Shown here in pieces: positions 27,352 to 49,993 of a stretch of DNA of 64,000 nt. The translations under genes and the position numbers were made by a program. A model generated the notes under the pieces. That model did no database searches. It was not told where the DNA came from and saw only the letters and a program-made list of their open reading frames with translations. The DNA comes from an uncultured Nitrososphaerales archaeon (GTDB taxonomy: Archaea > Thermoproteota > Nitrososphaeria > Nitrososphaerales > Nitrososphaeraceae), in NCBI GenBank assembly GCA_963695855.1, contig CAVOHZ010000010.1:1120001-1184000 (forward strand). Reading direction: 5' to 3'. Numbering within the stretch: the first letter of the stretch is position 1; every line of letters starts with the position of its first letter.

Positions 27352-27426
27352 GGGCTCGTAGCGTAGTCAGGACATCGCGGCGGTCTTCGGAACCGCAGGT
27401 CGTGGGATCGAAGCCCTCCGAGCCCG
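27352..27426 (+). tRNA. tRNA-Arg(TCG)
   Basis: Acceptor GGGCTCG/CGAGCCC, anticodon arm GCGGT-CTTCGGA-ACCGC, T arm GTGGG-ATCGAAG-CCCTC; no encoded CCA. Confidence 0.93.
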
Positions 27427-27484
27427 TCAACCAATTGGGCTCATATACTATAGATACTAGAAATGCACAGGAGTCCTCAGAAAG

Positions 27485-28795
27485 ATGCCTACGAAGTTAG
27501 CAAATATTCTTAAAAAAGTAAATGCGCTTGCAAACAGAAAGAATGCTACTTTGCTGATTGAATTTTATGAATATTTGGTATCTGTGCGAACTTCTGAAAG
27601 GTATCAAAACGATGTTTTGAAGGTTCTAATCAAGTTCTCTGAGTTTGTAGATTGCGATCTCATTCGCATTCAGAAAAGAGAGCAGATATTGGCCTTTCTT
27701 AATACAAAGAGAAAGGGAAAGGAAGATGATCCTGATGAGAGATGGATCACTACATGGAATGATTATCTTTGGCGATTAAAATATTTCTTTAGATGGCTAC
27801 ACAATTACAAAAATAATGAAAACAGTGAAAATATCGCCTTCCTTGAACCTTCAAACTGGATAACTCCGCCTTTTGCGGAAATAAAGAAGATTAAAACAAA
27901 GAGAATAAGTCCATATCTTGAAAATGAGTTATGGGAAAAGGATGAGATCCTTGCTATTGTAAAATATGAACCATATATCCGCAACAAAGCAGCAATAATG
28001 CTAATGTGGGATCTGAATGCCAGACCTCATGAGATAACTCTCCTTAAAATCAAGCATATACGATTGAAAGAAAAATATGGTGAAGGTGAAATCCCATATC
28101 AAGCAAAAACAGGTGGTGGACCAAGTTTATTAACAGCAAGTTTTCCCTATGTAAGAGACTGGTTAAATGAACATCCTTATAGAAATGAACCAAATGCTAG
28201 ATTGATCTGTAATTTGCTAAATGGCGGTCAGATAAATGCAGATGCAATATGGACAATGATGAAACAATTGAGAAAAAGGATTATGAGATTGCTAGAAAAC
28301 GATTCAGTTGAACAGGAAGAAAAGGAATTACTAGAATACTTGATCAAAAGCAAAAGATGGAATCCATACTGTTTAAGACATTCCTCTATAACTGCTGATT
28401 CTGATTATCTTCCAGAATACGCTTTGAAGAAAAAAGTAAGATGGTCTATGAACTCTAAACAGGGATCGAGATACATAAAAGGACGTATGGGATCAGAATT
28501 AAAGGCACAGATCCTTGCAAGAAACGGGATAATATCTGAAAATGAAATTAAACAAAAGCCATCAGTGCGCCTATGTTTTAGGTGTGATTTTGTAAATGCT
28601 ATTGAGAACAAATACTGTTCAAAATGCAGTTATCCATTAACTATACAAGCATACGAAGATATAAAAAATAATGAAGACAAAAGACTGGAAATACTTGAAG
28701 AGCAATTTCAAAATCTCAATGAAGCATACACGGAAATACTTGAATGTTTAAAGCATCCTGAAAAACTGTTGGAGATAGTAACAGAGGAAAAATAG
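27485..28795 (+). CDS. Tyrosine recombinase/integrase with C-terminal Zn ribbon
   Basis: NARPHEI (R), AKTG (K), YCLRHS (R), SRYI (Y), CFRC...CSKC; directly downstream of tRNA. Confidence 0.92.
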   Translation: MPTKLANILKKVNALANRKNATLLIEFYEYLVSVRTSERYQNDVLKVLIKFSEFVDCDLIRIQKREQILAFLNTKRKGKEDDPDERWITTWNDYLWRLKYFFRWLHNYKNNENSENIAFLEPSNWITPPFAEIKKIKTKRISPYLENELWEKDEILAIVKYEPYIRNKAAIMLMWDLNARPHEITLLKIKHIRLKEKYGEGEIPYQAKTGGGPSLLTASFPYVRDWLNEHPYRNEPNARLICNLLNGGQINADAIWTMMKQLRKRIMRLLENDSVEQEEKELLEYLIKSKRWNPYCLRHSSITADSDYLPEYALKKKVRWSMNSKQGSRYIKGRMGSELKAQILARNGIISENEIKQKPSVRLCFRCDFVNAIENKYCSKCSYPLTIQAYEDIKNNEDKRLEILEEQFQNLNEAYTEILECLKHPEKLLEIVTEEK

Positions 28796-29074
28796 GCTAG
28801 CAATTGATCTAATCCAAATCACAAACGAAAAATGAATAGACCAAACGTCTGAAAGACGTTTAGGTATTTTGATAATAATGAAGAATGGTTTTTGGACAGT
28901 CATATTTTTGGGAATGAGAATAGAAAATTTAACGCCTAAGTGGCGTTTTGTCTTTCATTATTCCCAACATACCTAGAATTTAACGATACTCTTAATGGAT
29001 TTTCAAACGTTTCGTATTTTTCATGATTCAGATGACTATCATACAATAATCATCTTAAATAATTTCTGTTAACC

Positions 29075-29236
29075 ATGCCTATGAAATATAAAAAATTAAT
29101 TAATATCTCAATCTCCTATGAGAACTACAATACTCTCAGAAGACTAGGAAACACGGGTGATTCATTCAATGATGTTCTATCTAGAATATGGAAAAAAGGA
29201 GAGAATAACGGATGTCTAAGGAAGAAATTAGAATAA
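29075..29236 (+). CDS. Small ribbon-helix-helix/antitoxin-like DNA-binding protein (not in ORF track)
   Basis: Hand translation MPMKYKKLINISISYENYNTLRRLGNTGDSFNDVLSRIWKK..., 53 aa. Confidence 0.7.
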   Translation: MPMKYKKLINISISYENYNTLRRLGNTGDSFNDVLSRIWKKGENNGCLRKKLE

Positions 29237-29415
29237 ATGCTTTACCAAAACCGGTTAAAAGACTTTGGAAAATTAGTTCGATATGTCTTGTATCAATTGA
29301 CGCATCAATAGTAGAGAAACTTGGTTTAAGCGAAGATAATACGCTTTTTGAGCAAGAAATAACAGATGAGGGGATTCTTATGAGAATAAAACATGTTGAG
29401 GGCTATTTGAAATGA
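29212..29415 (+). CDS. Small AbrB-like DNA-binding protein
   Basis: CLVSIDASIVEKLGL...EGILMRI swapped-hairpin pattern. Confidence 0.55.
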   Translation: MSKEEIRINALPKPVKRLWKISSICLVSIDASIVEKLGLSEDNTLFEQEITDEGILMRIKHVEGYLK

Positions 29416-29876
29416 GTTTACAAGATAATATCTTTCAAGTTCGATATACTCAATCTGGTTTAATAGACAAAATAAAAAAAGAACTTGCCATCGTAAAATT
29501 TGATGTCGAGAAATACAACAAAGAGATTGAAAAAAACAAGAAAAACAGACCTTCGAATTGGTGCTATTATGATTACAATCTAGAACTAGAATTTTCAGAA
29601 AACCCTAAAATTTCATTTGATATTGATGATAGATGGTATTATTACAAAGCCTATCATTATCAGAAACTTGGATTATTCTTACGCAAAGATATTCCTCCAT
29701 TCAAAGTGAATCTTTTACATCTATCTCCAGATATGATTTATGAATTAATTCAACTTGATAAAAGCGACAGAAGATTTTTTTTAAAGCAGGCAGTTAGTCG
29801 TATATTTGAAGACATTAATTTTGATCTTTACCATGATTCGATTTCTTTAAATTTGGAGATAATACTTGTAAAATGA
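29412..29876 (+). CDS. Hypothetical protein
   Basis: 154-aa ORF with ATGA overlap to the upstream gene. Confidence 0.6.
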   Translation: MSLQDNIFQVRYTQSGLIDKIKKELAIVKFDVEKYNKEIEKNKKNRPSNWCYYDYNLELEFSENPKISFDIDDRWYYYKAYHYQKLGLFLRKDIPPFKVNLLHLSPDMIYELIQLDKSDRRFFLKQAVSRIFEDINFDLYHDSISLNLEIILVK

Positions 29877-30018
29877 CCTGCAATTTAGACCACCAGAATT
29901 CCGATTTACTGCTCAGAACATACTTGCTTATTGAATGAGTGAAGCAACAATTTTGGTTAAAATAAAAACTTTATCAAAAAAGAATATTTATTAATATTCT
30001 GATTCAATTTTTGTTCAA

Positions 30019-31744
30019 ATGTCCTTAAATAATCCTATAATCTTCTTTATGGGTGCTGGAGCATCGGTTCCGGCAGGATTAAGAACGGTCGTACCAACTA
30101 ACCGATTATTTTAAACAGTATTGGTTAATACAAAAAAATCCGAATCAAAATTACTTAGGTATCGTTGACAAAGTAATCGAAAAAATTAAAGATTTTAGAA
30201 ATAACGATACCAATCAAATAACAGAAAACGCAGATAATTACTGTGTAGATATAGAGACATTATTAGAAACTGTCGAAAGACTAGAGGATTATAATAGAGA
30301 TATAATTTCAGTATTTGTCAATAAAGGTACTCTAATTTTTAATGAAGATCAAATTAAAATATTAAAAAATAAAGAATTGTCGAAGGAAATAAAGAAGTTT
30401 ATTAAAACCACATTTATAGATGATATGAAAGGTATAGATTATTTATATCCTTTAACATTGTTTACGGATGTTAAACCTTTAAACATATTTTCTACAAATT
30501 ATGACCTAACTATTGAAAGATTATGCTTCTTAAAAAACATAGGTTATACCGATGGATTCGATCCATATTGGAATAAGGATTTATTTCTAGAGTCAGGGAA
30601 AAATAAGGAGGTCAATATATTAAAATTACATGGATCAGTAAATTGGTATAGAACCGAATTAGGAGATTACTTTAGTATACCAATTCAATCTAAAGATATG
30701 GATATACAATTTGTATCTGGTGAAAAGGGAATTCCTCTTATTCTTTATCCAGGTACTAAACTACGGTATATTGAACCAGTACTAGAAATACTGACAATTC
30801 TAAGAGAAAGTCTTTTAAAGGCAAAATCTTGTTTTGTGGTAGGTTATTCATTTAAGGATGATCATATTACAAAATTATTCAAATATGCTGCACGAATAAA
30901 CAGGAATCTAATTTTATTTTTCATTTCGCCATCTGCTCATGAAATCTATTATGAGAAACTAAAAAGACACACAGATGAAGAATTTATACATGGATTTACA
31001 CATGAAGGATTTTCACCAAGGTTCAATATTGACCGTCCTTCTGAACTAGAAGGACGAGTAATATGTCTACCTTACAGATTCCAAAAAATATTCCCCAAAT
31101 TAAAAAAATATTATGAGAACTTACAGATTGGATTAAATTTAGAAAGTATAATTTATGATAAAAAGGAATCAGGAAAATTTTTTGAATTGAATGAATTATA
31201 TAATCTTGATAGTTCAAAAGAAAATTCTCCTTTAGATGAATCTTCAGAATATATAACAGTAGTAGATTGTTTAAGGTTTTTCATGGAATGCGAATATTTC
31301 GAAAAATGCCAGAAAATTATAGATGATTGCGGCGGTTGGAATGAAATTATGATTAAAGACCCAAAGATTACTCTCGAGTTACTTTTAAAATTTACACTTA
31401 ACTATAAGCATTATTCGAATCACAAATATTTTGATATATTAAAGGATTATTTAGAATTGAGAAATGAGAAACTAACTTTTGATATAAAACCAGATTCTAT
31501 AGTAACATATTTTAACATTAATTATAAAGGCAGACCAATAATAGGGTCTGGTTCTTATGATTTATTTTCATCACTTTTAGAAATAATTCACAAATCTCTT
31601 GAAATTTCCAGTGAAAATACTTTGGAAATTGAAGGAATGATTAACAATTGGAGAAAAATTTTCAGAAAATGGGAAAATTCTTCTATTAATATTTTTGAGT
31701 ACATGAAAAATTATATTCCAGAAGAATATTCAAGAACATTTTAA
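30019..31744 (+). pseudogene. SIR2-like (SIR2_2) NADase, frameshifted near the 5' end
   Basis: 30019 MSLNNPIIFFMGAGASVPAGL; DIETLLETVERL near 30250; ORF 30377-31744 has STNYD, KLHGSVNW, VGYSFKDDHI. Confidence 0.8.
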
Positions 31745-32010
31745 TTCTCTGTTAACAGATAAGAAGTTACGATGAAGTAAAAAAGTTGATTGGTAGAAAT
31801 GAAATAATTAATTTTTAAAAATAATAATTAGAAAGTATATGAATGTTAAGAATTTATTTGCTCTATTGTTTTATAACATTTTACGAATCAATCAAAGTAT
31901 CGGGCTCAATTCTGTCCCTCTGGTGGGAATCGTCCACTATCAGAATCTTTACATCTACTATGCAATAAAAATAAGCGTATTTGAAATCAACAAAACCTTA
32001 ATATATTATG

Positions 32011-32081
32011 TTACCGAACCCTGATATAATGAGAGTTCGAAGCCCTCCGAGCCCGTATACTAGTAGGGTTCAATAACATTT
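32011..32081 (+). repeat. att-like site A (tRNA-Arg 3' copy)
   Basis: TTACCGAACCC...TTCGAAGCCCTCCGAGCCCG-TATACTAGTAGGGTTCAATAACATTT. Confidence 0.9.
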
Positions 32082-32193
32082 AACAAATTAATTTTATTTT
32101 TCTAAAGATTTGACTTCTATAATTGAGAGTTTAAGAACAAATATTTTCAACTCAAGAAATAACATTATTTCAAACTATTTTTTTAATTCTATT

Positions 32194-32382
32194 TTAAGAT
32201 GGAATTAATCCTATTTTCGGATCATTATGAAATGCACAAAAATTAGCATAACTAGGGTATTTTTCATGACATAGTGGACAATATTTTTTAGTTTCAGTTA
32301 ATATATTTTCCCAGTCAAATTCTTCGCCACAACAGAGACAATTATTTCTTACAAAGATATTTTCTGAAGCAGCAGTTACCAA
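32194..32382 (-). CDS. Small double Zn-ribbon protein or gene fragment
   Basis: CLCC, CPLC, CAFH; start doubtful. Confidence 0.4.
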   Translation of the reverse strand: MVTAASENIFVRNNCLCCGEEFDWENILTETKKYCPLCHEKYPSYANFCAFHNDPKIGLIPS

Positions 32383-32442
32383 TCTTGAAAAGCTTCAAGC
32401 TCTAGGCTTAGAATTTGATTTAGTATATTCAAGTACTCCAAC

Positions 32443-33000
32443 CTATTTGGTAGATTCTATCCCCTTTTTGAAAAGGTTATACTGTCTGAGTAATCGCCTA
32501 TTCAATCCTATTACTATGCCTCCGCTGATAATTAGAGAAATATTAGTTACTAATATCGCTATCAAAATAATTGGAGTATCATTCACTAGCTGGGCATACT
32601 CTTCTACGTGTCTATAGAACGAGGCTGATCCAAGGAATATAATAGAAACAGAAATGCGCAAAACCAGCGAAGTAATGAAGACAATTTGAATATATAATCC
32701 ACCTTTTGAATAAATAGAGCCGTCAGATCCTCTCCAAAACGAAATTTTTACATAATGGTATGTAAGAAATTCAGCACCTATAAATATAATTATAAAGACA
32801 GGGAGAAATAAGACTGGAATGCCAATAAGGAAAGAGTTTAAAATAAAGTAAGAAACAAATATTGAAAAAACGATGGAAATCGCTATCAATACAGTCCTGT
32901 TCACCTTTGATCCCTCATGCGCCTTTCTTATCTTTAATATAGCAACTAAAGCGGTAACTATTATTGGAATCAAAGTAATCAAGTCAAAAGAACTGGACAT
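32443..33000 (-). CDS. CcdC/DUF1453-like membrane protein
   Basis: Five TM segments, FWRGSDGSIYSKGG...LVLRI. Confidence 0.55.
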   Translation of the reverse strand: MSSSFDLITLIPIIVTALVAILKIRKAHEGSKVNRTVLIAISIVFSIFVSYFILNSFLIGIPVLFLPVFIIIFIGAEFLTYHYVKISFWRGSDGSIYSKGGLYIQIVFITSLVLRISVSIIFLGSASFYRHVEEYAQLVNDTPIILIAILVTNISLIISGGIVIGLNRRLLRQYNLFKKGIESTK

Positions 33001-33318
33001 CTAATGAAAAAAGTGAACTAGAATTATAAAAAGTCTATTTTACAGATATCCATTTGTCAAAATATTGTAATAGGATCTATTAAAATTTTAAGGTTGATAT
33101 GATTCTAGTAAATAAATTAGGATTTAATGAATCGACAAAATTTTTGTTCTAAAAATTTTTTATTTAATTTCTAAAAACTTTCTGTTTGTTCAAATAAATA
33201 GTTCATTATTTCTAAAGAAATAAAAGGTATAGATTTGCTTCATTTCTTAAACTCAAGTTTCTATTTGATATTTTATTTTTATCTGAACTACAAAATTGTG
33301 TCAAAATCAGTTCACACA

Positions 33319-33353
33319 CCTCCGAGCCCGTATACTGGCAGGATTCAATAACA
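33319..33353 (+). repeat. att-like site B (shorter tRNA-Arg 3' copy)
   Basis: CCTCCGAGCCCG-TATACTGGCAGGATTCAATAACA. Confidence 0.8.
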
Positions 33354-33451
33354 GTTTCTAGTTTAATTCAAAAATAAATGTGAATATTAGAAAACTTACT
33401 ATTGAAATTTGAAAAAGTAGATATTAAATAATTTGATAAACTAAAGGCAGT

Positions 33452-33682
33452 ATGAATTCAATAGTAATTACATCTTTTATTGCATTTGCTATAATTTCCG
33501 TAATGCTAACAGTATTTGAAAATGTGTTTGGACAAGGAGAGGAGGCAGAGCAAAGACAGGATCAATCACCACCAACATTAGATGATAATAACAATGGAAG
33601 AATTATTAGTGAAGAAATTTGTCCGCCATATTGCAGCCCACCTCCTCCGATACAAGAGTTACCACAAGAGCAACCACCATAA
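33452..33682 (+). CDS. Small secreted Pro/Gln-rich protein
   Basis: Signal-like N-terminus (VFGQ), CPPYCSPPPP. Confidence 0.6.
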   Translation: MNSIVITSFIAFAIISVMLTVFENVFGQGEEAEQRQDQSPPTLDDNNNGRIISEEICPPYCSPPPPIQELPQEQPP

Positions 33683-33994
33683 TTTTATTTGCACTTTCCG
33701 TATGTTATAATTTCAAGTATCTCTCTTGTTTGTAATAGATTCTAATATTAGAAATAGTAAAATATATTTTATTTCATTTCATTTACGTTTTTAAAATTAG
33801 ATAAATTTTATAATTATATTAGATATTATATTTTTAGCATTAAATATTGACTTTAATTTTCTGATTGAAAGATATGATGAATATAATAAATAAATACATA
33901 AAATTATAATAACATTATTGACATTTCATCCATCTCAATGATATATTATTTTATTTAATAAAGATACAATAATCAGAATGTCTCTTAAATTGAT

Positions 33995-35209
33995 ATGTAT
34001 AAGAATTTTGAAAATAATAATAAACAATTTAAATCAAAATTAGTTGAACATCTAAATGAAACATTATTTATTGAAAATGAATCAATAGGTAGAATAAAAT
34101 CAAGAATAGAACAGACACCGATTCTAGAAGTAAAACAAAGACTACTTCAACATTTAGAAGAAACATATAAGCAAAAAAACAGACTAGAGCAAATAATTGT
34201 AAAATTATCATCAGAAAAATCTAATAAACATAAAGCAAATTTGTTACCATTAACACCTGATTCTTCTAGTATAATAAGAACGAATCTTAAAAATTCAATA
34301 AAATCATTACCAAGTAATGATGAAGGTTTCAATCAAAGATTTAAATCTCTTCCAGAAGAAACTGAATTAACAAGAATTAAGGAAGACTATATAATAGAAT
34401 ATGATGAGGTAGTTACCTATCATAAATTGATACATATTGCAGAAATGACAGATTTACCACAACCCAATGATATTATATCTTTACTAAAAGAAAGTATGCA
34501 GGAAGAAGAATCAATGGCAAACTGGTATCAAGTACATGTGTCAGTGATACTTGAAAACCTATGGCCAAAGCTGATAAATTCTCCCATAAAGCGAGCTCAA
34601 GAATTTCTTCTCAATTATGCGGGTTCTAAAATGCCACTTATTATAATGTATGCGGATCTGGTTGGATCGACTAATTTGAGTATGACTTTATCCGTAGAAA
34701 TTCTTATTGCATTAATAAGAGCATTTACTCATGAACTATCAAATGTTGTAGAAAGATATAATGGTTATGTTCTAAAATATGTAGGAGATGCAGTAATTTC
34801 TTTTTTTCCTTATGCCATAGACAACAAATATCAGGTATGCAAGAATTCAATTGAGTGTGCAAAGTCAATTATAGATGTAATCAATACAGAGATTAATGTA
34901 ATTTTACATAAAAAATATGGTTATCCAGAATTATTTGTAAAAATAGGTATAGATGAAGGAGAAAATGTTGTAATTCAATATGGATATGAAAGAAACTCAC
35001 TAATTGATATATTAGGATACAGTATGAATGTTGCAGCAAAGATAACTTCTCTAACCACTGCGAATAGTATATCCATCGGGGAAAATGTGTATCATTTATT
35101 GGATCATATCCAACAATCAGAATTTCAAGAGTTGAAAATATCTATCAACAATTGGAAATATATCAATCGTGATACGAAAGAACCTTATAGAATTTACAAG
35201 ATAAAGTAA
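33995..35209 (+). CDS. DUF892 ferritin-like domain fused to class III nucleotide cyclase
   Basis: HLEETYKQKNRLEQI, EYDEVVTY, EEESMA; then YADLVGST, KYVGDAV, KIGIDEG, DILGYSMNVAAKI. Confidence 0.85.
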   Translation: MYKNFENNNKQFKSKLVEHLNETLFIENESIGRIKSRIEQTPILEVKQRLLQHLEETYKQKNRLEQIIVKLSSEKSNKHKANLLPLTPDSSSIIRTNLKNSIKSLPSNDEGFNQRFKSLPEETELTRIKEDYIIEYDEVVTYHKLIHIAEMTDLPQPNDIISLLKESMQEEESMANWYQVHVSVILENLWPKLINSPIKRAQEFLLNYAGSKMPLIIMYADLVGSTNLSMTLSVEILIALIRAFTHELSNVVERYNGYVLKYVGDAVISFFPYAIDNKYQVCKNSIECAKSIIDVINTEINVILHKKYGYPELFVKIGIDEGENVVIQYGYERNSLIDILGYSMNVAAKITSLTTANSISIGENVYHLLDHIQQSEFQELKISINNWKYINRDTKEPYRIYKIK

Positions 35210-35429
35210 ATTTTTATCTGATTTAATGTCTGTTCTTTTCCAAGCATTTCAATTTTATACTCATAGCACTCTTTTATTACAGCATTGCCGTATAGTAGAA
35301 ATTAGAATTTTTATATTGAACTCTAAAGAATGGTGTTATAGAACATAATATTATATGAATAAGAATTTGCATTCTAATATTTTAATAAAAATAAAACTTA
35401 TATAAAAATATAACATACCTTATACCTTA

Positions 35430-36379
35430 TGTATTATCCCACCACATGTGTTACACTCCTATTATACACTTGTACTGGTGTCATGTAGTTCAATGACATA
35501 TGTACTCTTTTATTATTGTAATATTTAATGAATTGCTCATGTCTTTTGAATCTAGGTCGCTCTACATCATATGTACGATGCCATCTTTCTATTTTACCAA
35601 GTGTGGTAGGTTTTCCTATACCACCCATAACATGTTGTATGTCATATTCTTTGCAGAAAGAATCAAAATCTGACTGTAATTTAGAATGTGAATTATAGAA
35701 TTGTGAACCATGGTCTGTCAGTATCTGTAATGGTTTTCCATATTTTCTGATTGTACGCTTCAATAGATAAATAATCTTATCTGATGTACCTTCTACACAT
35801 TTGATAGATGATAACACATATCTGGTGTGATCATCAAAAATAGATATCAGCCAAATTCCTTCATTTTCTATAACTTTCAGGTCAATCTGCCACAATTCAT
35901 TTGGAAATTTACGCTCAAATTGTATGTATTTTCTCTTCTTTCTGGGTTTGTTGATAGGATTGTTGTTCAATCCGCTTTTGCATAAAATTCTGTATACTGT
36001 CATATGTCCTACCTTTATGTTGTATTGGTTCGCAAGAGTTCCTTGTATCTTGTGTGGACAGTAATGGTATTTCTTTCTTAACTGTACTACCTTCTGTTCT
36101 ATCTTTTTATCTGTTCTATGAATTGTATGTGGGTCTTTTAGAATGATCTTTTAGTCCATTTAATCCCTCTTTCTTGTACCTGTTCCAGTATCTGTAGAAA
36201 CTCATTCTGGATATGTGTATATGTTTACAGATGTCAGTTACTTTCCATCCTCCTTCCAGTTTACGTCTTATACACCATCTTCTTATCTTTTCTAGATCTT
36301 GTTTATACTGCATCTAGTGTAACAACACTCCTTACTCTTACCAAGTAAAAGAGTGTAACAGATGTCATGGGATAATACA
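35430..36379 (-). mobile_element. IS481-family insertion sequence (950 bp)
   Basis: TIRs TGTATTATCCCACCACATGTGTTACACTC / GAGTGTAACAGATGTCATGGGATAATACA; flanking 16-bp duplication CATACCTTATACCTTA. Confidence 0.9.
35434..36313 (-). pseudogene. IS481 transposase with single frameshift near 36131
   Basis: HTH ORF 36313-36116 joins RPHTIHRT...GHM frame into WQIDLK, TDHGSQF, GKIERWHRT (DDE). Confidence 0.85.
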
Positions 36380-36390
36380 CATACCTTATA

Positions 36391-36790
36391 CCTTAAAGAA
36401 ACTTTTTATATCACTAAGTTTAATATTACCAATAGTTGTAACAATTGTTTTATTAGTTCCACAACTAGTAATAAATTCGCAATCTACAGGTGTAAATGAA
36501 AGGTTAACTAACTCTCAACCTATAGAACCAATAAATTTGTCGTCTATACTAAAATTTGAAAAAGTTAAAACTATTCCTAATGAAATTCATGTTGGAGAGA
36601 AGTTTAGTATAAGTGCAACTGTTGTTAATACAGGGTCTTATCTGTCACTTTTATAGCAAATCTTTGTGATTCTGAACTTTATGCAACGTTTGATAATAAA
36701 GTTGGAGAATTAAATGCTCCAGAATGTAAGATGGTTTCAGAACCCGTTATATTCAATACAGGAGAGAAATCGATAGTGATGATATAAATA
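36391..36790 (+). pseudogene. Relic of a secreted protein gene next to IS481
   Basis: LKKLFISLSLILPIVVTIVLLVP...IHVGEKFSISATVVNTG then stop/frameshift; no clear start; 3' end approximate. Confidence 0.45.
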
Positions 36791-38201: not shown

Positions 38202-38207
38202 TACTTT

Positions 38208-39968: not shown

Positions 39969-40055
39969 GAGATAATTTTCAATAGCCATTACATATTTCA
40001 ACAATGTGTTCCAATAATTTACCTATTTGTATTTACTGATAATTCTATAGTGTTT

Positions 40056-40718: not shown

Positions 40719-40738
40719 AATTGCTATAGATGAAAGTC

Positions 40739-40780
40739 ACTGGTCCCACTTTATAGAAGGGTTCAAATCCCATCGGTTCC
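40739..40780 (+). repeat. Arm-type repeat of the att family
   Basis: ACTGGTCCC-N11-GGGTTCAAATCCCATCGGTTCC; similar to 37801, 49811 and partly 49586. Confidence 0.65.
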
Positions 40781-40937
40781 TTTTTTTTAATTGAAATTCA
40801 CATTACTTTGGTTTTTTTTCTATATTTTTAATTAAAAATATCATTTATATTAATAAATAAGATTTAGCAAAATTTCTTTTATGATATTTTTATCAAATCC
40901 AATTCTATATATTGTATAATAAAACTTTAATAATTCA

Positions 40938-40987
40938 ACTGGCCCCTTATAATATATGGGGCCAGTGGGATGAGAAACAAATTTGAC
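40938..40987. repeat. Dyad ACTGGCCCC-N11-GGGGCCAGT overlapping left 32-bp inverted repeat
   Basis: 40956-40987 is 30/32 identical to the reverse complement of 45053-45084. Confidence 0.85.
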
Positions 40988-41511
40988 CTATTTGTTGGTT
41001 CCCTCTTGAATTAAAGTTTATAATTATAATGTATGAATTGCGAATTTATTTTCTTTATATTAAATTAAGATTTATCCAAAACACTTTCGAATAGGATTAT
41101 CAATATATTAACAAACTTCACGATAAAAATATATTTTTATATTATAATCTTTTCTGACTTGTTTGGACCATTAATAGTAACAAATGAGAAAAGAGGGACT
41201 TGATCATCTACACATAAATGGACTAGCTATATCTCTCGTTAAGTTAACAGCACCGCTAAATTTGTATCAATTTGTATTTGACTCAAATACATTGTTGTTT
41301 ATATTTTTGTTCATATACAACAGTATTATAAAGGATAAAATGTAGCCAATATCGGGGCAATTATCAATATATATAATTTTGAATTCTCAGAATTCATTAT
41401 TATTTTTTCTAATAATTATTAGAGTATATTTAAAAATTATTCAATAATAACATCTTCTAAAATAACTTAATAAAATAACTTTAATTAAATACTAAGATCA
41501 AATATCTATTA

Positions 41512-41673
41512 TTGAAATATGATTGGGATGCAACAGCATATGATCATATTTCAGATATACAAGAATCATGGGGACATTATATAATCAAATATATAAAATG
41601 CAAGGGAAATGAAATTGTTCTTGATGCTGGTTGTGGTTCTGCAAGATTAACCAAGATTTTATCAATTAAATGA
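41512..41673 (+). pseudogene. 5' fragment of a class I SAM methyltransferase (trans-aconitate MTase-like)
   Basis: Hand translation MKYDWDATAYDHISDIQESWG...VLDAGCGSARLT then stop. Confidence 0.7.
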
Positions 41674-41723
41674 CTATATCAAATACGTATAAATTAATAA
41701 TATATGATTATGGGATACAATAT

Positions 41724-42194
41724 TTATAGTAAATGATTCTTTTTTACAATCTTTACAAATTCTTCTAACTTTTTCAAAGTTTGCTGATGTAAATGGTGTT
41801 CTATACCCTCTGCATCTTTATTTGCAATATCTTCGTCTACTCCAATCATTTTTAAAAATTCAGCCAACAAACTATGTCTCTGATGAATATTAATGGCCAC
41901 ATCAATCCCCTGCTGGGTTAGACAAATTCCCCTATATTTTTCATATTTGAGATAGCCAGTTTCATCCAATCGCTTTACCATTTTAGTTACACTTGGAGAA
42001 CTCACATTAAGGCATTGAGAAATATCTATGGTTGTAGCATAACCTTTCTGCTGTACCAATTCATAAATAACTTCAAGATAATCTTCCATTCTATCTGTAC
42101 GGTCTTCGTTTTCCTTCTTTCCGGTATGAGCATCACGAATCGATTCAAGACGATTGATACCTGCATCAGAGTCAGCTTTCAACTTTCTTAGCAA
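41724..42194 (-). CDS. mntR: DtxR/MntR-family metal-dependent regulator
   Basis: MEDYLEVIYEL, VSSPSVTKM, RHSLLAEFL, DAEGIEHH. Confidence 0.9.
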   Translation of the reverse strand: MLRKLKADSDAGINRLESIRDAHTGKKENEDRTDRMEDYLEVIYELVQQKGYATTIDISQCLNVSSPSVTKMVKRLDETGYLKYEKYRGICLTQQGIDVAINIHQRHSLLAEFLKMIGVDEDIANKDAEGIEHHLHQQTLKKLEEFVKIVKKNHLL

Positions 42195-42239
42195 TTTTTA
42201 TTTACCATCCTTATGTATATTTTAGTTACTAACAATTAG

Positions 42240-43559
42240 TTAAGATGGTATCAGCACTGATGTTGCATACATTATTGCCATTCCTACCGTAAATCCTGCA
42301 ATCATAGGTGTACTTAACATAGTCTTTCTTGGTTCATTAGTATTTGATGACATCCAAGAAGTGATGGAAAATACTACTTGAAATATTGCACCAGCACCTA
42401 TAGACAAGAATATTATTGCAGCAATAGGAGAATAGAGAAACCCTCCAATCCATGCTCCTACTATTGTTGGAACACCAGCTATCAAACCCATTGTTATCAG
42501 TTTTCGTATTGTCACTTTGGCACCACTTTTGGCCATTGGTGCTACTATTGCTAATCCTTCAGTAGTATTGTGTAAGGTAAATCCAACTATGAGAAAAGTA
42601 CTGAGGGCTACTTGTCCTAATAGAACAGCAGCACCTATTGCCAGACCTTCTCCAAAGTTATGTAATCCAATTCCTATTGCAATCATCATTGCTATAGCGA
42701 AAGGTTTTGCTAATTGTTGTTGCTGTTGTTGTTTTTGAAGGTCCTTTGTCGTAGAAGAAGAGAAGGAGGAAGAATATGTTACTAAGTTAGATTTAGACGT
42801 ATTGGCATCAGACTTGATTTTGGCGTGTTCAATAAGTTTTTCAGATGCATATAACAATACCAAGAAGGTAATGATTGTGATCATAGCAATCAACACTTGG
42901 CCATTAAAAGCTCCTGCAATATTTTCCCCTACAATTTCATTGCTTTCTACTAGTGCATCTATTCCTAAGAAGACAAGCAATCCTGTCGTAAGACTAAGGA
43001 AGAATTTATACTTGTTCATGCCAAGTCTTTTTATAAATGGAAACCAGAGAAGACCTATCAGTACGGGTATAACTCCTACATATATACCAATAATTGCAAA
43101 GTATGATGCTTGCTGAACATTTGGAGTTGGTGCTAATGCAGCCGCTTCAACACTCTTGCTAAACCTTGTACCATCAGAACTAGTCACTCCAACTTCATAT
43201 GGTACGCCTGCAATCCAAGAAAAAGGTACTATAACCTTTGCTTCTGCCAGTCTTGGCAATGTTTTACTTGGTTCTATTGCAGCTGGAATCATCCGATCAT
43301 TAATGTCGGCTTGCGCAATTTCTACTCCTTCTGGACCAGTATTACGGATAAATGCTACAATTTTATCATTTTGGAATTCTATCTTTTCTATTGTGATTTC
43401 AGGCAAAGGTATTCCTGTGTTTAATATCGACATACCAGGACCAAGAAGAAATACAAGCATTCCAGACAGTACTATTAAGGGAATTAACGCTATAACGATC
43501 ATTTTTTTTCGACTCGTCTTCCTGTTATTTCTATCGATTCTATTTTCATCAGACTCCAT
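42240..43559 (-). CDS. ZIP-family divalent metal transporter with soluble N-terminal domain
   Basis: GLHNFGEGLAIG and LHNTTEGLAI motifs. Confidence 0.9.
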   Translation of the reverse strand: MESDENRIDRNNRKTSRKKMIVIALIPLIVLSGMLVFLLGPGMSILNTGIPLPEITIEKIEFQNDKIVAFIRNTGPEGVEIAQADINDRMIPAAIEPSKTLPRLAEAKVIVPFSWIAGVPYEVGVTSSDGTRFSKSVEAAALAPTPNVQQASYFAIIGIYVGVIPVLIGLLWFPFIKRLGMNKYKFFLSLTTGLLVFLGIDALVESNEIVGENIAGAFNGQVLIAMITIITFLVLLYASEKLIEHAKIKSDANTSKSNLVTYSSSFSSSTTKDLQKQQQQQQLAKPFAIAMMIAIGIGLHNFGEGLAIGAAVLLGQVALSTFLIVGFTLHNTTEGLAIVAPMAKSGAKVTIRKLITMGLIAGVPTIVGAWIGGFLYSPIAAIIFLSIGAGAIFQVVFSITSWMSSNTNEPRKTMLSTPMIAGFTVGMAIMYATSVLIPS

Positions 43560-43564
43560 TTCTC

Positions 43565-44791
43565 TTAACTGCCTCCTTGTGAAGCTTCTCCATATCTAAC
43601 AACTGCTGCAGATTGAGAATTTTTTGTTTTACTTTGAGTAGTAAAAGTATTCTTACTTATCTCAGCTGGATAGTCAGCTCTCTCACCTTTAGTAAATGCA
43701 GTCACATCTGACTCAGATAGGCCTTCTTTAACCAAGAACAGGCCAGTCCATCCTTTCTCTGCAAATTCTGTCTTGTGAGCGTGGAACATATAGGGACCGG
43801 GATACTTGTAGGAGAATTCTAGTATTGCTCTTTCACCTTGACTAAATGTTACCACATCTGTATACTCATTAGGAGTAACGCTGGTTCCAGTTCGATAGAG
43901 ATGAAATAGATTGCCATGCAGGTGAAAATTATTTATTTGATCAAATTCTAGTATATTAACCAAGTATACACGTACCAATTTGTCTTTTTCAATTTGGATA
44001 GGATGGTGCATGTAATAATTTGGAATTCCATTTACTGTGTAAAAGTTATTTTCAGTATCAAAGTCATTATCATATCCATTCATTACCATAACCATTTCAT
44101 CAGCTGGAGGTCTTGGTGTTTTAGGGTCTACAATATATGCACCATAAAGACCCTTAGAGATGTGCTCTTCTAAAGGCTGCATATGACAGTGGTAAAGAAA
44201 TAGACCAAATGGTTCAGCTATAAATTCATAAGTGAAGCTTCCACCGGGAGCAATAATTTCAAATACTCCATCCATTTGAGATTGATGAATGCCATGAAAA
44301 TGCATAGTATGAGGTTTTGATCCATTATTTATGAACTTGATTTTAACTAGATCACCTTCGGTTGCTCTAATTGTTGGACCTGGAATTGTTCCATTAAACG
44401 TCCAAGCATCCATAAATACACCTGGTGATACTTCAAGATTCTTATCTAGAGCTACTATAGTAAATTCGCGTAATGTGGTTCCGTTGTCTGTTGTCGATAC
44501 TTTCCCGTAATTGAACTCTCTTAGATATTTCATTGGATCTATAGTCAGATCAGTCCTTTCGTCCGCATTGAGTGAATCTAAAACATCACCTGTAGTTCTA
44601 ATTGTATTGTATCCACTACCGTGTCCGCCAGTAACTATTGTTTCCTTTTTAGTTGTTTTTTCTTCCTCCTTTGAGAAGGTATTATTATTCTGTGCAACTA
44701 CTGAAACTCCACTAAGAAAAGAAATAGCAAAAGATGTAGTTAGACTACCTGATAAAAGTATAGCAATTAATATTATTTTCGATCTTGACAT
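43565..44791 (-). CDS. Secreted two-domain multicopper oxidase
   Basis: HTMHFHG, YHCH, FHLHG, MFHAH; signal peptide. Confidence 0.9.
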   Translation of the reverse strand: MSRSKIILIAILLSGSLTTSFAISFLSGVSVVAQNNNTFSKEEEKTTKKETIVTGGHGSGYNTIRTTGDVLDSLNADERTDLTIDPMKYLREFNYGKVSTTDNGTTLREFTIVALDKNLEVSPGVFMDAWTFNGTIPGPTIRATEGDLVKIKFINNGSKPHTMHFHGIHQSQMDGVFEIIAPGGSFTYEFIAEPFGLFLYHCHMQPLEEHISKGLYGAYIVDPKTPRPPADEMVMVMNGYDNDFDTENNFYTVNGIPNYYMHHPIQIEKDKLVRVYLVNILEFDQINNFHLHGNLFHLYRTGTSVTPNEYTDVVTFSQGERAILEFSYKYPGPYMFHAHKTEFAEKGWTGLFLVKEGLSESDVTAFTKGERADYPAEISKNTFTTQSKTKNSQSAAVVRYGEASQGGS

Positions 44792-44820
44792 ATGAATAGT
44801 ATTGTTAGTCTAAATAATAA

Positions 44821-44840
44821 ATGTTAGCCTATGCTAATAT
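44821..44840. promoter_or_regulatory. Putative DtxR/MntR operator
   Basis: Near-palindrome ATGTTAGC-CTAT-GCTAATAT about 30 bp upstream of the MCO-ZIP-mntR operon. Confidence 0.55.
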
Positions 44841-45052
44841 TATTAATAAGCTTAAATATTTTATCATAGGGTTTCATAATTATAATTAGTATCTCTTTTG
44901 ACCTATAACAAATACTATATCAGTTTACTAATATCTAATCATAGACTTTGAAAATTAAATTACTGTTTTTGCCAATAGAAGTTTGTTAGATTTTATGTTA
45001 AATGTGAATATCATTTAACATTCTTATTGTCATAGAAGGGACCAAAATTTAT

Positions 45053-45105
45053 GTCATATTTGTTTCACATCCCACTGGCCCCATTTATAAGTGGGTTCAT
45101 ATACT
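45053..45105. repeat. Right 32-bp inverted repeat / att-like site upstream of integrase relic
   Basis: TTCACATCCCACTGGCCCCA (tRNA-3'-like) then TGGGTTCATATACT, matching TGGGCTCATATACT at 27436. Confidence 0.8.
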
Positions 45106-45181
45106 TTGGGTTTGCTATAAGATTTTGTAGATATAAGATTTTGTAAAAGCAAGAAGGAGGAGAATAGAAGGATAAATATCA

Positions 45182-45792
45182 TTGAAATTATTTACAACGA
45201 TAGGAAAAATTCAAAATATCCCTAATTCCAAAAATATAGAACTAATAAATGAATTTCTAGAATATACGAGAAATAATAGTTCTTCAGAACATCATCAAAA
45301 TAAGAATATAAAAGTTTATAATAACATTGGTAATTTTATAGGTAAAACATTTGATTTTTAGCTATAACCAAAAAAGAACAAATTTTAGAATTTCTTAATA
45401 CTAAAGTTAAAAGATATTATGAAGATCCTGATAAAAGAATGATATCAACATGGAACAATTACCTCAATCGGTTAAGACTATTTTATTTTTATAGATGGTT
45501 ATACAATCATGCTAATGACACTGATCATGAAAATTGGCGAACTCCAGAATTTGTCAGGATAAAGAACAAAAAAAGTAAAAGAATATCTCCATATTTAGAA
45601 AGTGAAATTTGGGAAAAAGATGAATTATTGTCTATAATCAAAAATCAACCATATAAAGAGAAGAAGGCAGCTCTAACATTGTTTTGGGATCTAAATGGAG
45701 AAATCATAAAATTACTAAAATTAAAACATATTAGATTCAGGGAAAAATACGCAGAAGGTGAGGTCCCTCTGAAGGTATTAATTAAAGAATGA
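45182..45792 (+). pseudogene. Degraded tyrosine integrase, paralogue of 27485-28795
   Basis: KNIELINEFLEY, TWNNYLNRL, KRISPYLESEIWEKDEL, LKHIRFREKYAEGEVP; frameshifted and truncated. Confidence 0.88.
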
Positions 45793-45963
45793 TAGACATT
45801 TTATATTGACATTAGTCTTCAGTGTCAGACCAAAAAGTGTTTAGGAAAAGGTGACAACCTTTAGAGCCTCGCTAATCCCATATCTTTTTTTATCTAATGA
45901 TATGGATTATCGTTACACTTTGTGGATCACGTTGGCTGGCTGACTATTTCATGTCTTTATATT

Positions 45964-46383
45964 CTAAAAGAGACGTCTGTGCTCTGCCATCATACACCTA
46001 TTGTAAACAACATCCATGCCATTTTCCTTTGCTTTCTTCTCCGCCTCCTCATTGTAGATGCCTTCCTGCATCCAAATCACCTTAATGTCATCTTTTCTGT
46101 TAAGTGCATCATCTATTACAGGAAGTACATCTTCTGATTTTCTAAATATGTCTACTACATCTACCCTTTCTGGAATGTCTGCTATTGTTGGATATGATTT
46201 TCTTCCCAATACTTCAGAAATTGTTGGATTGACTGGAATAACATTATATCCATGTTCAATAAGGTATTTAGGTACAAAATTTCCTGCCTTTTCTTCGTTT
46301 TTTGACATACCAACTACTGCAATATTTTTCAACTGGTAGATTTTCTTTAACTCTGAATCTGAATGAGAATCCTGCTTTGTCAT
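45964..46383 (-). CDS. CoA-binding protein (YccU-like)
   Basis: IAVVGMS, VIPVNP, VDIFRKS, WMQEG, NRCM. Confidence 0.9.
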   Translation of the reverse strand: MTKQDSHSDSELKKIYQLKNIAVVGMSKNEEKAGNFVPKYLIEHGYNVIPVNPTISEVLGRKSYPTIADIPERVDVVDIFRKSEDVLPVIDDALNRKDDIKVIWMQEGIYNEEAEKKAKENGMDVVYNRCMMAEHRRLF

Positions 46384-46574
46384 ACTATTATTATTATAGT
46401 TTTATACAATAATATTATTGCTATTATTTGGACTGTGCGAAAAATTTTTGTTCATTTGTTCTTCTCTAATCACGTACTAAAAATGCAATGGTTTGAAGAT
46501 AATGAACTTGTATTATATAGTAATAAAGAGCGTAATGAATTTGCTTTTAAGACTGATAGTGAATCAGCGCTCTG

Positions 46575-47243
46575 TTAATTTAAGATAATTTCCACCTCCT
46601 TTAACTCAAAATCATTATTATTATTCGTTATTGTATCATTATACATAGATACAAAGAATTGTATCCAGTTATGTACATGAAATAGATTACATTCCTCTTT
46701 TCGCATACAAGGAGAGTAGTCATCAAAACTTTCTATTCTGTCTTTCAAATACTGGTTGACCCGTTCCATTAGACTTTTCTCTATTGAAGAATGAACATAA
46801 TGTTTCAATCCAATTACATTACATGCTTTATCATATCATGTACCTTCATCTGCGTATACAATATGCTTTCCATATTTTGATACAAGAGATCGAATGAACT
46901 TTTCAGCGACTATCATGTTTCTCTCTTCAGAAATATATATTCCAAGCACAGAACTGTGTACCGGTTCAATACAAAACCATAACCAGAAGTGCTGGTTACC
47001 AATCTGAATAATGGTCTCTATAATAAAAGCAGTTACTCTTTTTCTTTTATAGATCTGCAATGAACCAAATCTTTGAATCCAGTTCCCATACAGCAATGTA
47101 ACTTCTCTTTTCATCTCTAAATATTATCAATGCCTTGTATGTATTACGTAGACTTAAACCAAGATAAAGAGAATACATTACTATAACTGTGGATGTTCTA
47201 TTTCTAATGAATTTAACAAGTATTTATTAGAGATAGGACATTC
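46575..47243 (-). pseudogene. IS6-family transposase relic
   Basis: [43 protein letters not shown] across several frames. Confidence 0.8.
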
Positions 47244-47290
47244 ACAGCTAAATCTATTTTCTTAAAACAGCCCTTTTTTTGAAGGAATGA

Positions 47291-48637
47291 TTAATACTTA
47301 TGTTCTTTTTTTGTTTCTCTTATTACAGAATCTATATATTTTTCTAACTCATTTTCATCCAATTCAAATTTAGCCTCTTTGTCCATTTCTAGAGTATCTT
47401 TCTTTTGAGTAATTTTTTTGACAGTTCTTCGAATTTCGGCGTCCATCTCTGCTTGTCCTATTAGACCCAACAACCTTGACTCCAAGGCATGCTTACGTAT
47501 AAGTTTACGCAGATTATGATTAGTTGAAACAAGCGTTGCGGAATTGTAAATACCTAACAACATCAAAAATGCTCCTATATTCAAAACTGTTATCGATGAA
47601 AGTCCGAAAGGAGGATAAGGACTAACGACTTGTGTTGCTGCCTGATTTGCGGCAAATATTAAAAATATGCCAAAACCAGAGATTATCATGTATGTCCTGA
47701 TGATTCTATCATAACTAATGATTCTGGATATCTTCCAAAATGCAAGTCCGAAAAGCAATCCTCCGATGGGTTTACTTAATGCTAGGAATGCTCCTAACAT
47801 GATAGAAACAGTTACCGGATCAATTGCGAGATACGAAATTAGTATCCTGCTTAGGGTATACTGGTAAAAATATGTAATTAAAAAATACACAAGTGGTACA
47901 GACAATAAGATCCAATACACTATAGCATTTGTAGACTTCTCTCTGTAATTGTTCATTAATATTGCTGTTGTAATCCATATACTGAAAAAAGATATAAATG
48001 ACAAAATTCTGGAAACATTCGCTAAAAATAGATGTTTAGCCAAAGTTACGTCTCCCGAGCTTCCAACATATTCCCCTATACGATCTGGCAATGCATTCAT
48101 CTTGACACTGATAAAAGCGGCAGTCATGATTAAATTAAATGCTATCATTAACATTGACATAAAATATAAAAAGACAATCAAGTTGCGGTTTGATTTAAAC
48201 CAAGAGAAGAACATGATAGATAAAAATAATATCAAAGTTGCTGCTGTTCCATAACTTATAACAATTATCATAATACTGACAGGTGTGTAGAAGTAGTTAT
48301 TATGGAACTGTTGAAATATTAGAATTCCTATCAAACTTGCCAAAACAAATAATGAAATTAACGAAATTCTGTTAAAAGCCCAAACCATCAATCTCTTATT
48401 TAATTTGTAACTTTCAGATGAACTCTGTATATACTTTATAATCAAAAATTCTAAAAGCAGACATAATGAACTGTTGATGGAAAATAATATTAACTTACTT
48501 TGTAAAGGAATAAAATATTTATCAATGAGATCGTTTATCTTTACAACTGAAGTATCAATTAGTAAAGTCACTATTAATACGGTCACAAGAATAAGAAATT
48601 TCCTATTGCACCCTAATTTTTTATCATTTATAAGCAA
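47291..48637 (-). CDS. Polytopic membrane protein of unknown function
   Basis: About 10 hydrophobic segments, PYPPFG, soluble tail LGLIGQAEM. Confidence 0.75.
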   Translation of the reverse strand: MLINDKKLGCNRKFLILVTVLIVTLLIDTSVVKINDLIDKYFIPLQSKLILFSINSSLCLLLEFLIIKYIQSSSESYKLNKRLMVWAFNRISLISLFVLASLIGILIFQQFHNNYFYTPVSIMIIVISYGTAATLILFLSIMFFSWFKSNRNLIVFLYFMSMLMIAFNLIMTAAFISVKMNALPDRIGEYVGSSGDVTLAKHLFLANVSRILSFISFFSIWITTAILMNNYREKSTNAIVYWILLSVPLVYFLITYFYQYTLSRILISYLAIDPVTVSIMLGAFLALSKPIGGLLFGLAFWKISRIISYDRIIRTYMIISGFGIFLIFAANQAATQVVSPYPPFGLSSITVLNIGAFLMLLGIYNSATLVSTNHNLRKLIRKHALESRLLGLIGQAEMDAEIRRTVKKITQKKDTLEMDKEAKFELDENELEKYIDSVIRETKKEHKY

Positions 48638-48716
48638 ACTTGATTATGCAGTGTAGAGTGAGCATAAAGACAAACATAATCTTTTTGTATTAGAGCTTGT
48701 AAATTGTGATGATATA

Positions 48717-49430
48717 TTGCCTAGAACAACCGGCTTAATCGCCACATCTTTTATATTCATACTGTTACTATTGTCATTTACGATATCGCCAGTTTTAGCT
48801 TCAAAGTCAGTAAATATTTTTCCCCCAGGAAGCAAACCATATGGTTTAACATATGCCGAACATGAAAAAAACTTCTGGACGTGGACACTAGCGATACCAG
48901 CGAAAGAAAGTCCTGTTAACGATCCTACAGGAGAGAAATGTGCAAAAGGTCAGACGAATACAAATTCGTCAGTTTTTTACTTGAGTTTTAACAATGGAGG
49001 TATATCTGATAGAACATGTAAAGTCCCAGCTGGCAAAGGTCTAGTAATACCAGTAATGCAGGTAGAGTGGTCTGACAAGGAATACCCAAATTCATCGGTA
49101 GAGCAGTTGCGTGAGGCCGCTAAGAAGGATCAAGATAGTGTTAACAGTTTGTATCTTAAAATAGATGATAAAGAGTACAAGTATGAGGATCTTATTAAAT
49201 ATAGAACTCCTACAGATGCTTTTGGGGTTGTCTTTCCTGATAATGGAATTTTTGGAGTTATTGAATGTGGTGTTTCCAAAGTTGTTGCTGATGGATTTTA
49301 TATAATAACTGAACCGCTTACCAAAGGCAATCACTCGATCCATTTTAAATCAAGTTTAATTTGTCCCGATCCAGATTGTGCAGAGCCTAATTTTGCACAA
49401 GATATAAAATACAATATAGTTGGACAATAG
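48717..49430 (+). CDS. Secreted Cys-containing protein of unknown function
   Basis: Signal peptide, FWTWTLAIP...NDPTGEKC...RTCKVPAGK...ADGFY. Confidence 0.75.
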   Translation: MPRTTGLIATSFIFILLLLSFTISPVLASKSVNIFPPGSKPYGLTYAEHEKNFWTWTLAIPAKESPVNDPTGEKCAKGQTNTNSSVFYLSFNNGGISDRTCKVPAGKGLVIPVMQVEWSDKEYPNSSVEQLREAAKKDQDSVNSLYLKIDDKEYKYEDLIKYRTPTDAFGVVFPDNGIFGVIECGVSKVVADGFYIITEPLTKGNHSIHFKSSLICPDPDCAEPNFAQDIKYNIVGQ

Positions 49431-49810
49431 ATAGATATACTAATACCAATTCTCTCCTTTTTTATCACAATTCTATTTCCGGTTCTTTTTTACATTTTTT
49501 CATTGTCTTTCCAATTCTGTTACACTTATGTTTTAGATATGGTTGAATATTCCTCTAATAGATTGTCTAAATCATGAACAGCAGTGAAGGATTCAAATCC
49601 CTATCTATGTTAATTCTTTAACAATAGTTTTAAGAAAATTCTTTAGCACAATCTAAAAAATTCATTTATCCTTAACTATATTCTAATGATATATCTACCA
49701 ATGTAGTTGCAGCATTCGAACTCCTTCATAAACTTTCATCTATTGAAACCTGGATATACATTATTTTAACTTAACAGAATCTTGATGATATTTATTTTAT
49801 TCAAAGAGTA

Positions 49811-49993
49811 ACTAGTTCCCTTTGTCGAAGGCTTCAAATCAAACTGATTCCTTTTTTCCATTTTTTCCAATCAATTGGAAATTGTTATCAATTATTAAGT
49901 TACCAAACTAATAAATGTCAGTTTACCGAGCCCAATTACATGTCAAACTCGAAGGCTTCCGAGCCCGTATACTAGTAGGGTTCAATAACATTT
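49811..49993 (+). repeat. att-like site D with upstream arm
   Basis: GAAGGCTTCAAATC...TTACCGAGCCCAATTA...TCGAAGGCTTCCGAGCCCG-TATACTAGTAGGGTTCAATAACATTT; tail identical to site A. Confidence 0.9.

Follow-up and report, generated by a model that had tools for sequence, protein, structure and literature searches.

Integrated elements that line up behind one chromosomal site are known from bacteria and archaea. In Streptococcus thermophilus, tandem accretion of cis-mobilisable elements (CIMEs) has reportedly been described for ICESt1 and ICESt3: segments flanked by attachment (att) sites and devoid of recombination genes occupy one site in tandem with an element that carries an integrase, and the left and right partners reassort. 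The ssrA islands of Dehalococcoides follow one small RNA gene in tandem, each ending in a repeat of its 3' end and each reportedly with an integrase of its own. Integrons have an integrase at one end of a row of same-orientation recombination sites with cargo between them. For archaea, including Thaumarchaeota, the parts of two accounts on which we draw describe integration by a tyrosine recombinase at the 3' end of a tRNA gene, short att repeats, tandem re-use of one site and loss of the integrase (PMC6563490; PMC8371274). Here we analyse a window of 64,000 nucleotides (G000:C10:1120001-1184000) from an uncultured Nitrososphaerales archaeon, in which a row of att-bounded segments follows the gene for tRNA-Arg(TCG). 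The genome (G000; 3.55 Mb, 11 contigs, G+C about 31%) encodes an archaeal AmoA, so the host is an ammonia-oxidising archaeon. Coordinates without a contig label are window positions, and all sites of the array lie on the plus strand. The genus comparison comprised G000 and 24 other genomes of the genus (25 in total), labelled G, with their contigs labelled C.

This locus is probably a tandem accretion array for which the 3' end of tRNA-Arg(TCG) serves as the integration hotspot, and its modules were most likely moved by a neighbouring or resident integrase. Because relatives carry different segments at the same joints, we describe it as a gene-exchange hotspot and not as an integron. Unlike the Dehalococcoides islands, most of its segments have no integrase. 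It shares with CIME accretion all the features named above. The differences are an archaeal host, a tRNA target, the lack of a conjugation module, three classes of left arm, a dedicated integrase-less class of tail and a dozen or more sites; mobilisation, moreover, is something we infer here from sequence. The archaeal tandem elements in the consulted parts of the two accounts are pairs, not long and mostly integrase-less arrays, and no conserved integrase-free arm is described there (PMC6563490; PMC8371274). Our literature search found no description of such arrays; supplements, which possibly list cases, were outside that search. It is unusual here that most species of the genus share a conserved att arm without an integrase, that modules stay recognisable next to changing neighbours, and that arrays span tens to hundreds of kb.

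The anchor of the array is the only tRNA-Arg(TCG) that ARAGORN found in the whole genome, and it was the sole Rfam match over 26000-51000 (Table 1). Next to it lies the gene for IntA, a tyrosine recombinase. IntA scores 26.3 bits against Pfam Phage_integrase, slightly below the cut-off of 27.1 bits. It carries the motifs R..K..LRH..W..Y, and ARPHE, AKTG, LRH, RWS and RYI are conserved in an alignment with its paralogues; the catalytic residues (R-K-H/Y-x-x-R-H/W-Y criterion) are assigned from these motifs only. IntA and its paralogues also have in common a C-terminal CxxC...CxxC zinc ribbon (residues ~365-390; 28570-28650), unusual for tyrosine recombinases. A PDB sequence search with IntA gave no match. 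As in the non-SSV type, the att site lies outside the integrase gene, which integration leaves intact. The tail that runs from the tRNA into IntA, T2, likewise precedes integrase N-termini at other loci. The first segment, E1, is a complete element with perfect 19-bp direct repeats at both ends; IntA rides on this mobile element and does not belong to a fixed platform.

Further copies of the 19-nt tRNA 3' end (core O) lie at 32037 (no mismatch), 37948 (one mismatch) and 49949 (two mismatches), against a shuffled expectation of 0.00. A fourth site, B, retains only the last 12 nt of the core, CCTCCGAGCCCG (33319-33330). An earlier reading of the same DNA, made from the letters alone and hereafter the original prediction, had listed the tRNA, an intact integrase of the tyrosine type and, in the same orientation, four copies of the 3' end (32037, 33319, 37948, 49949), and each of these was recovered. 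Its ungapped alignment of three sites was confirmed as well, as was its claim that sites A and D have the same tail: A, C and D share a gap-free alignment of 58 nt upstream (66-84% identity), and the 23-nt tail T1, TATACTAGTAGGGTTCAATAACA, is the same at A and D and differs at B by three mismatches. The homology of T1 stops at the same base in all three. Each site consists of a P arm of about 40 nt, the core O and a P' tail. The P arms fall into three classes, alpha (A-like sites), beta (C and D) and gamma (B), while the tails are T2 after the tRNA, T1 after A, B and D, and T4-type after C. P alpha and P beta carry TTACCGArCCC, a second direct copy of the core motif, and the tails carry an inverted GGGyTCA; we read both as putative integrase-binding motifs. 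The 12-19 nt core is the probable place of the crossover. The spacer directly 3' of the tRNA was rejected as its location, since attL and site A have identical cores but differ in this spacer.

Table 1. Features of the array and of related loci (window positions unless a contig is given)
Feature	Position	Strand	Remarks
tRNA-Arg(TCG)	27352-27426	+	ARAGORN and Rfam; attL
att core O in tRNA	27408-27426	+	last 19 nt of the tRNA
T2 tail	27427-27449	+	P' arm of E1; TCAACCAATTGGGCTCATATACT; runs from tRNA into integrase
Element E1	27427-32055	+	IntA, VapB-like open reading frame (ORF), two small ORFs, SIR2-like protein
IntA	27485-28795	+	tyrosine recombinase, 436 aa; intact; starts 58 nt past tRNA end
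VapB-like ORF (E1)	29075-29236		
SIR2-like protein (E1)	30377-31744		matches defence-associated SIR2 (Aga_SIR2) models
Site A	31998-32081	+	P alpha 31998-32036, O 32037-32055, T1 32056-32078
Module E2	32056-33330	+	1.27 kb; bounded by att sites, without integrase
Zinc-ribbon ORF (E2)	32194-32382	-	62 aa
Membrane protein (E2)	32443-33000	-	185 aa; Pfam CcdC-family E 0.011, below cut-off
Site B	33284-33353	+	P gamma, degenerate core 33319-33330, tail T1' 33331-33353
Module E3	33331-37966	+	bounded by att sites, without integrase; also a small secreted ORF
PycC-like cyclase (E3)	33995-35209		fused to DUF892
966-bp insertion sequence (IS) (E3)	~35419-36384		rve transposase and helix-turn-helix ORF
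Isochorismatase-family gene (E3)	36957-37625		
Site C	37909-37995	+	P beta, O 37948-37966 (1 mismatch), T4-type tail
Composite segment E4	37967-49967	+	mosaic; in order: enoyl-CoA hydratase (ECH) fragment; PNPOx, aldo-keto reductase (AKR), isochorismatase; DtxR-ZIP-multicopper oxidase; second-family att; integrase remnant; CoA-binding; IS fragments; two unknown proteins
DtxR-like repressor / ZIP transporter / multicopper oxidase block (E4)	41664-44919		
Second-family att site (E4)	45040-45106		O2, the 3' end of a different tRNA, at 45064-45083, then T2-like tail
Other second-family copies in window	40957-40976	-	with 45064-45083 (+); degenerate copies 37810-37847, 40749-40786, 49820-49857
Truncated integrase remnant (E4)	45182-45792	+	55% identity to IntA residues 59-204
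IS fragments (E4)	46575-47114		
Site D	49910-49993	+	P beta, O 49949-49967 (2 mismatches), T1 tail 49968-49990
Right neighbour: luciferase-like oxidoreductase and PNPOx gene	50036-51594	-	two-gene block kept in the genus, contexts vary
Contig C7 (L001)	G000:C7:1-10052		~10 kb, IS copies at both ends

An integrase adjoining the anchoring site, sites in one orientation and segments without an integrase are also what a true integron-like platform would offer, in which a resident integrase at a fixed primary site captures and expresses single integrase-free cassettes. We regard such a platform as highly improbable, since it is already contradicted on the defining features tested. An NCBIfam scan of IntA returned no integron-integrase model at E <= 0.01, and its only match was the archaeal XerA model at 28 bits against a cut-off of 220. 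Hairpins of the attC type were rejected: only one of the four sites, A, folds better as DNA than its shuffles (z -2.4, compared with -0.27 for B, -1.24 for C and +0.08 for D). The segments measure 1.3-12 kb and hold from two to more than ten genes on both strands, and thus show neither single-ORF cassettes nor a common promoter direction. IntA itself lies inside an element with its own perfect repeats, other integrases occupy the tRNA in relatives, and no T1-led module was seen beside the tRNA in the readable flanks. The term "integron-like" of the original prediction therefore fails as a statement of family membership.

Segments E2 and E3 have no integrase. Neither matched any of the five integrase queries with which absence was tested, and Pfam recognised no recombinase in them apart from the inserted IS of E3. 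The claim that most segments carry cargo only thus holds for E2 and E3 with respect to integrases, but not throughout: segment C-D contains an integrase remnant (45182-45792) and IS fragments, and segment B-C contains the 966-bp IS. Likewise, the name "CcdC-like" for the membrane protein of E2 goes back to a weak Pfam match below the cut-off (Table 1). Some cargo of the window is defence-like, namely the SIR2-like protein of E1, the cyclase-DUF892 fusion of E3 and a patatin-like phospholipase (52062-53240); no complete known defence system was recognised among this cargo. The cyclase block (33960-35310) also occurs at 97% identity in G018:C77.

The T1 tail is found across the genus. A 32-mer made of the last 9 nt of O and T1 occurs 35 times with at most three mismatches, and often with none, in 16 of the 24 other genomes, with up to five occurrences per genome; the reversed 32-mer gave no match in any of the 25 genomes. 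All 29 T1 sites of relatives sit after a P arm and never after a tRNA body. The DNA that T1 leads in relatives encodes hydrolases, oxidoreductases, transporters and two-component regulators but no recombinases, and most of these flanks are missing from G000. T1 is a conserved right arm of att sites across the genus and not a single chromosomal flank. The original prediction, which had taken the repeated tail as a sign of integrase-free cassettes, is largely borne out on this point: T1 marks a class of modules that have no integrase and whose partners reassort at the cores.

A different origin for T1 would be the native flank of the tRNA gene, copied by aberrant excision as in specialised transduction, with the T1-led segments being captured chromosomal DNA. 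The ordinary metabolic and regulatory genes of these segments, which lack recombinases, agree with such an origin, as does a single 21-kb element of G003 that ends in P-beta-O-T1. We nevertheless consider it very unlikely: no junction between the tRNA and T1 was found, at least ten unrelated sequences come after T1 across genomes, and no T1-like flank follows tRNA-Arg in more distant relatives. The oxidoreductase that adjoins site D is kept in relatives, though not beside T1. From the relatives, a native chromosomal flank of the tRNA was not definable, as synteny downstream of the tRNA is lacking.

T1 is also set apart by its lack of linkage to integrases. An IntA N-terminus lies within 700 nt in none of 40 pattern matches of T1 (genome and comparison loci). 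In the same scan, T2 had such a neighbour in 9 of 24 matches and the T1-like tail in 6 of 18; every class includes several matches that are not att sites. The five integrase queries, applied to the 1.6 kb next to the 29 T1 sites found in relatives, produced a single 26-residue match. These counts bear on pure decay, by which each segment would be a formerly autonomous element that lost its integrase later, leaving the integrase-less segments dead. Decay has left traces in the form of the integrase remnant of E4, truncated integrases behind att sites at C10:1327255 and C10:1328918, many broken IntA homologues in the genus and IS insertions, and a review of archaeal tyrosine recombinases, in the part on which we draw, presumes that integrated elements lacking an integrase lost it after integration (PMC8371274). 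However, none of the 40 T1 matches keeps an N-terminal integrase fragment, the T1 homology of A, B and D stops at one and the same base, and E2, at just 1.27 kb, is near-identical in a sister genome with new neighbours on both sides. Decay as the whole explanation is thus unlikely in our judgement.

The tRNA is a hotspot in relatives too. Upstream synteny with G016, G003, G010, G022 and G012 covers the aminotransferase gene (24125-25312) and ends at the tRNA; none of these five genomes is syntenic downstream of it. An element-type tail follows the orthologous tRNA in the six relatives with a readable flank, and the adjoining integrase was checked in three of them. In G010, the tRNA is followed by a T2 tail and an IntA homologue, and in G003 by a T1-like tail and an IntA homologue (58% identity). 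The same T1-like tail follows the tRNA in G006, whereas G016 and G022 have a T4-type tail; the integrase that comes after it in G016 is of another type (418 aa, weak Pfam match). In G017 the flank stops at the contig edge. The tRNA of G015 has no element tail, but its locus is not syntenic.

Modules keep their identity while their neighbours differ between genomes. E2 occurs in G019:C6 at 99.24% identity over 1316 nt, with an identical 185-aa protein, while the core of G019 is 95% identical over 16.2 kb. G019 shares only two pieces of 27427-47400, E2 and a 0.9-kb piece of the integrase-remnant block (90%). In G019, the left arm of E2 is beta and not alpha, and to the right of site B lies unrelated DNA with another att site 490 nt on. 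Within G000, contig C7 matches 31998-36400 at 100% over 4403 nt (site A-E2-B-E3), starting exactly at the P arm. To the left of its site A is a different element with a PIN/VapB-like pair and a BTRD1-beta-lactamase-family gene. E2 has three different left neighbours. Of six T1-led right segments that recur, five stand behind different P-arm types in different genomes. The breakpoints also fall at the sites: homology with five genomes starts at 33275-33319, in or at the start of P gamma, and homology with one genome ends at 33353.

Metagenomes gave further joints. We used Logan contigs from four soil or rhizosphere runs (four studies) at a likeness of at least 92%; these contigs are short, short-sided, low in depth and from other organisms, and the parts that the four runs leave uncovered are uninformative. 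Loose ends of such contigs lie at 33284, at 33331 (continuing into a T2-like tail) and at 32081. In other contigs, 37912 or 37937 is joined through a beta arm to 32037 (O-T1-E2), and 37913 to 27410 (O-T2). These joints have the form of a composite junction; they show other orders of the same parts and not circles in the G000 strain. A joint from 27426 to 32131 (run X2, side 26) was too weak to count as an empty E1 site. The IS of E3 is missing from the matching DNA in G018:C405 and in contigs of two of the metagenome runs.

A comparison of segment content at the sites between genomes had been set beforehand as a check, and the content does change, in G019, in C7 and in the metagenome contigs. 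The idea of integrase-free cassettes that each carry their own att site can accordingly be kept for E2, a discrete unit whose neighbours differ in G019 and C7, but not for C-D, a decayed composite with an integrase remnant.

This composite, E4, is a mosaic. Its DtxR-ZIP-multicopper oxidase block is 87-96% identical at the DNA level in 12 other genomes of the genus and 80-81% in two more; for comparison, core DNA identity is 69-79% in G010 and G018. Inverted copies of a second att family flank the block. The core of this family, TTCAAATCCCACTGGCCCCA, is the 3' end of a tRNA at C8:91508-91603 and has 28 copies in the genome; the 80 kb downstream of that tRNA contain 13 copies with the same orientation (G000:C8:91508-172081). 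In the window, its copies interleave with the Arg array and sit about 100 nt upstream of both beta-type sites. Because the integrase remnant of E4 is preceded by this different tRNA 3' end and a T2-like tail, we assign it to a paralogous element family. Together with the CoA-binding gene, the truncated integrase forms a block (45072-47205) that recurs at G000:C8:546790-548913 with 92% identity, and the greater part of it (45035-46786) is found in G014:C18 at 90%. Since the block recurs in other places, the truncated form was copied as such.

Arrays of this kind are widespread in the genome and the genus. The array extends past 49993, with similar sites far beyond the window on the same contig. 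The profile scan proposed earlier did uncover further att sites across the genome: a profile of 12 sites gave 25 matches at E < 0.001, which include the 12 training sites, two duplicates on C7 and two tRNAs. On C10, sites lie on the plus strand at 1.147-1.170 Mb, 12 lie on the minus strand at 1.217-1.359 Mb, and one is on the plus strand at 1.362 Mb. At least 17 Arg-type sites occur on one contig of G000. In the whole span of 1.147-1.362 Mb, IntA is present intact only once; the only other integrase matches there are four fragments and a further integrase-like ORF. The orientations on C10 would be explained if a formerly longer array had undergone a single large inversion. A contig of a relative, G019:C11, is partly collinear with G000:C10:1217000-1362000. 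Same-strand arrays without an integrase match are present in G019:C11 (eight sites in 25 kb), G014:C11 (six), G004:C170 (four) and G006:C134 (four).

Several observations weigh against an accretion array moved by integrases. G019 is a close relative, and an identity of 99.2% in E2 against 95% in the core is therefore suggestive of recent exchange and not proof of it. For contig C7, a second copy and a strain variant co-assembled with the genome are both possible. Neither an excision product nor a circle or empty site was found for G000 in public runs, none of which contains more than 31% of the words sampled from 27300-37299. T1 directly follows an intact tRNA in none of the six readable tRNA flanks and at none of the 29 T1 sites of relatives, so independent integration of T1 modules is unsupported. 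Integrase loss by decay is certain, as integrase fragments are very common in the genus, where IntA homologues are often broken.

Some boundaries also lie away from the sites. In G010:C197, a copy of the cyclase block (33960-35310) at 98% identity lies between unrelated sequences, and its boundaries carry no att site. Between G019:C11 and C10 (~1.27-1.32 Mb), blocks are reordered, with at least one break away from detected sites. The PNPOx gene of E4 (38198-38798) and the oxidoreductase (50035 onward, to 51607) are about 370-400 nt apart, without an att site, in G002:C75 and G008:C89, while in G000 they are separated by 11.2 kb ending in site D. Because the two adjoin in G002 and G008, 38799-50034 resembles an insertion or replacement whose end is an entire P-O-T1 unit. 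Besides integrases, homologous recombination, IS activity and deletion evidently shape these loci as well.

For the accretion array, we propose the following mechanism. Circular elements would carry an att site of about 85 nt in which a core equal to the tRNA 3' end stands between a P arm with TTACCGArCCC and a P' tail with the inverted GGGyTCA. The circle would be inserted into the tRNA by a tyrosine integrase of the IntA family; insertion would regenerate the tRNA, and the displaced copy of its 3' end would stay at the distal joint. Successive arrivals would shift older elements outward, with E1 as a complete and recent arrival. E2 and E3 would be att-bounded modules without an integrase, and T1 the right arm of a genus-wide class not linked to integrases. 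Such modules could move in cis, by composite excision between non-adjacent sites, or alone in trans. Catalysis by IntA, the order of arrival and the mode of mobilisation are deductions from the arrangement of the sites. Given that no T1 module was found beside a tRNA, capture of modules on their own seems to us less likely than movement together with a neighbour that has an integrase.

More tentatively, the arrays could belong to a genus-wide gene-exchange network, in which T1-marked, non-autonomous cargo modules without an integrase are moved and reshuffled by the integrases of their neighbours, giving arrays that are anchored at a tRNA and count a dozen or more att sites. We consider this possible, though with less than even confidence. 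Such arrays may be a main route by which flexible genes, including defence and metal genes, enter these unusually large archaeal genomes, and they would be an archaeal equivalent of CIME accretion whose outcome resembles that of an integron. Arrays of att sites explain assembly breaks at such loci, and the sites provide precise, testable junctions. If borne out, these findings would show how soil ammonia oxidisers gain and shuffle accessory genes.

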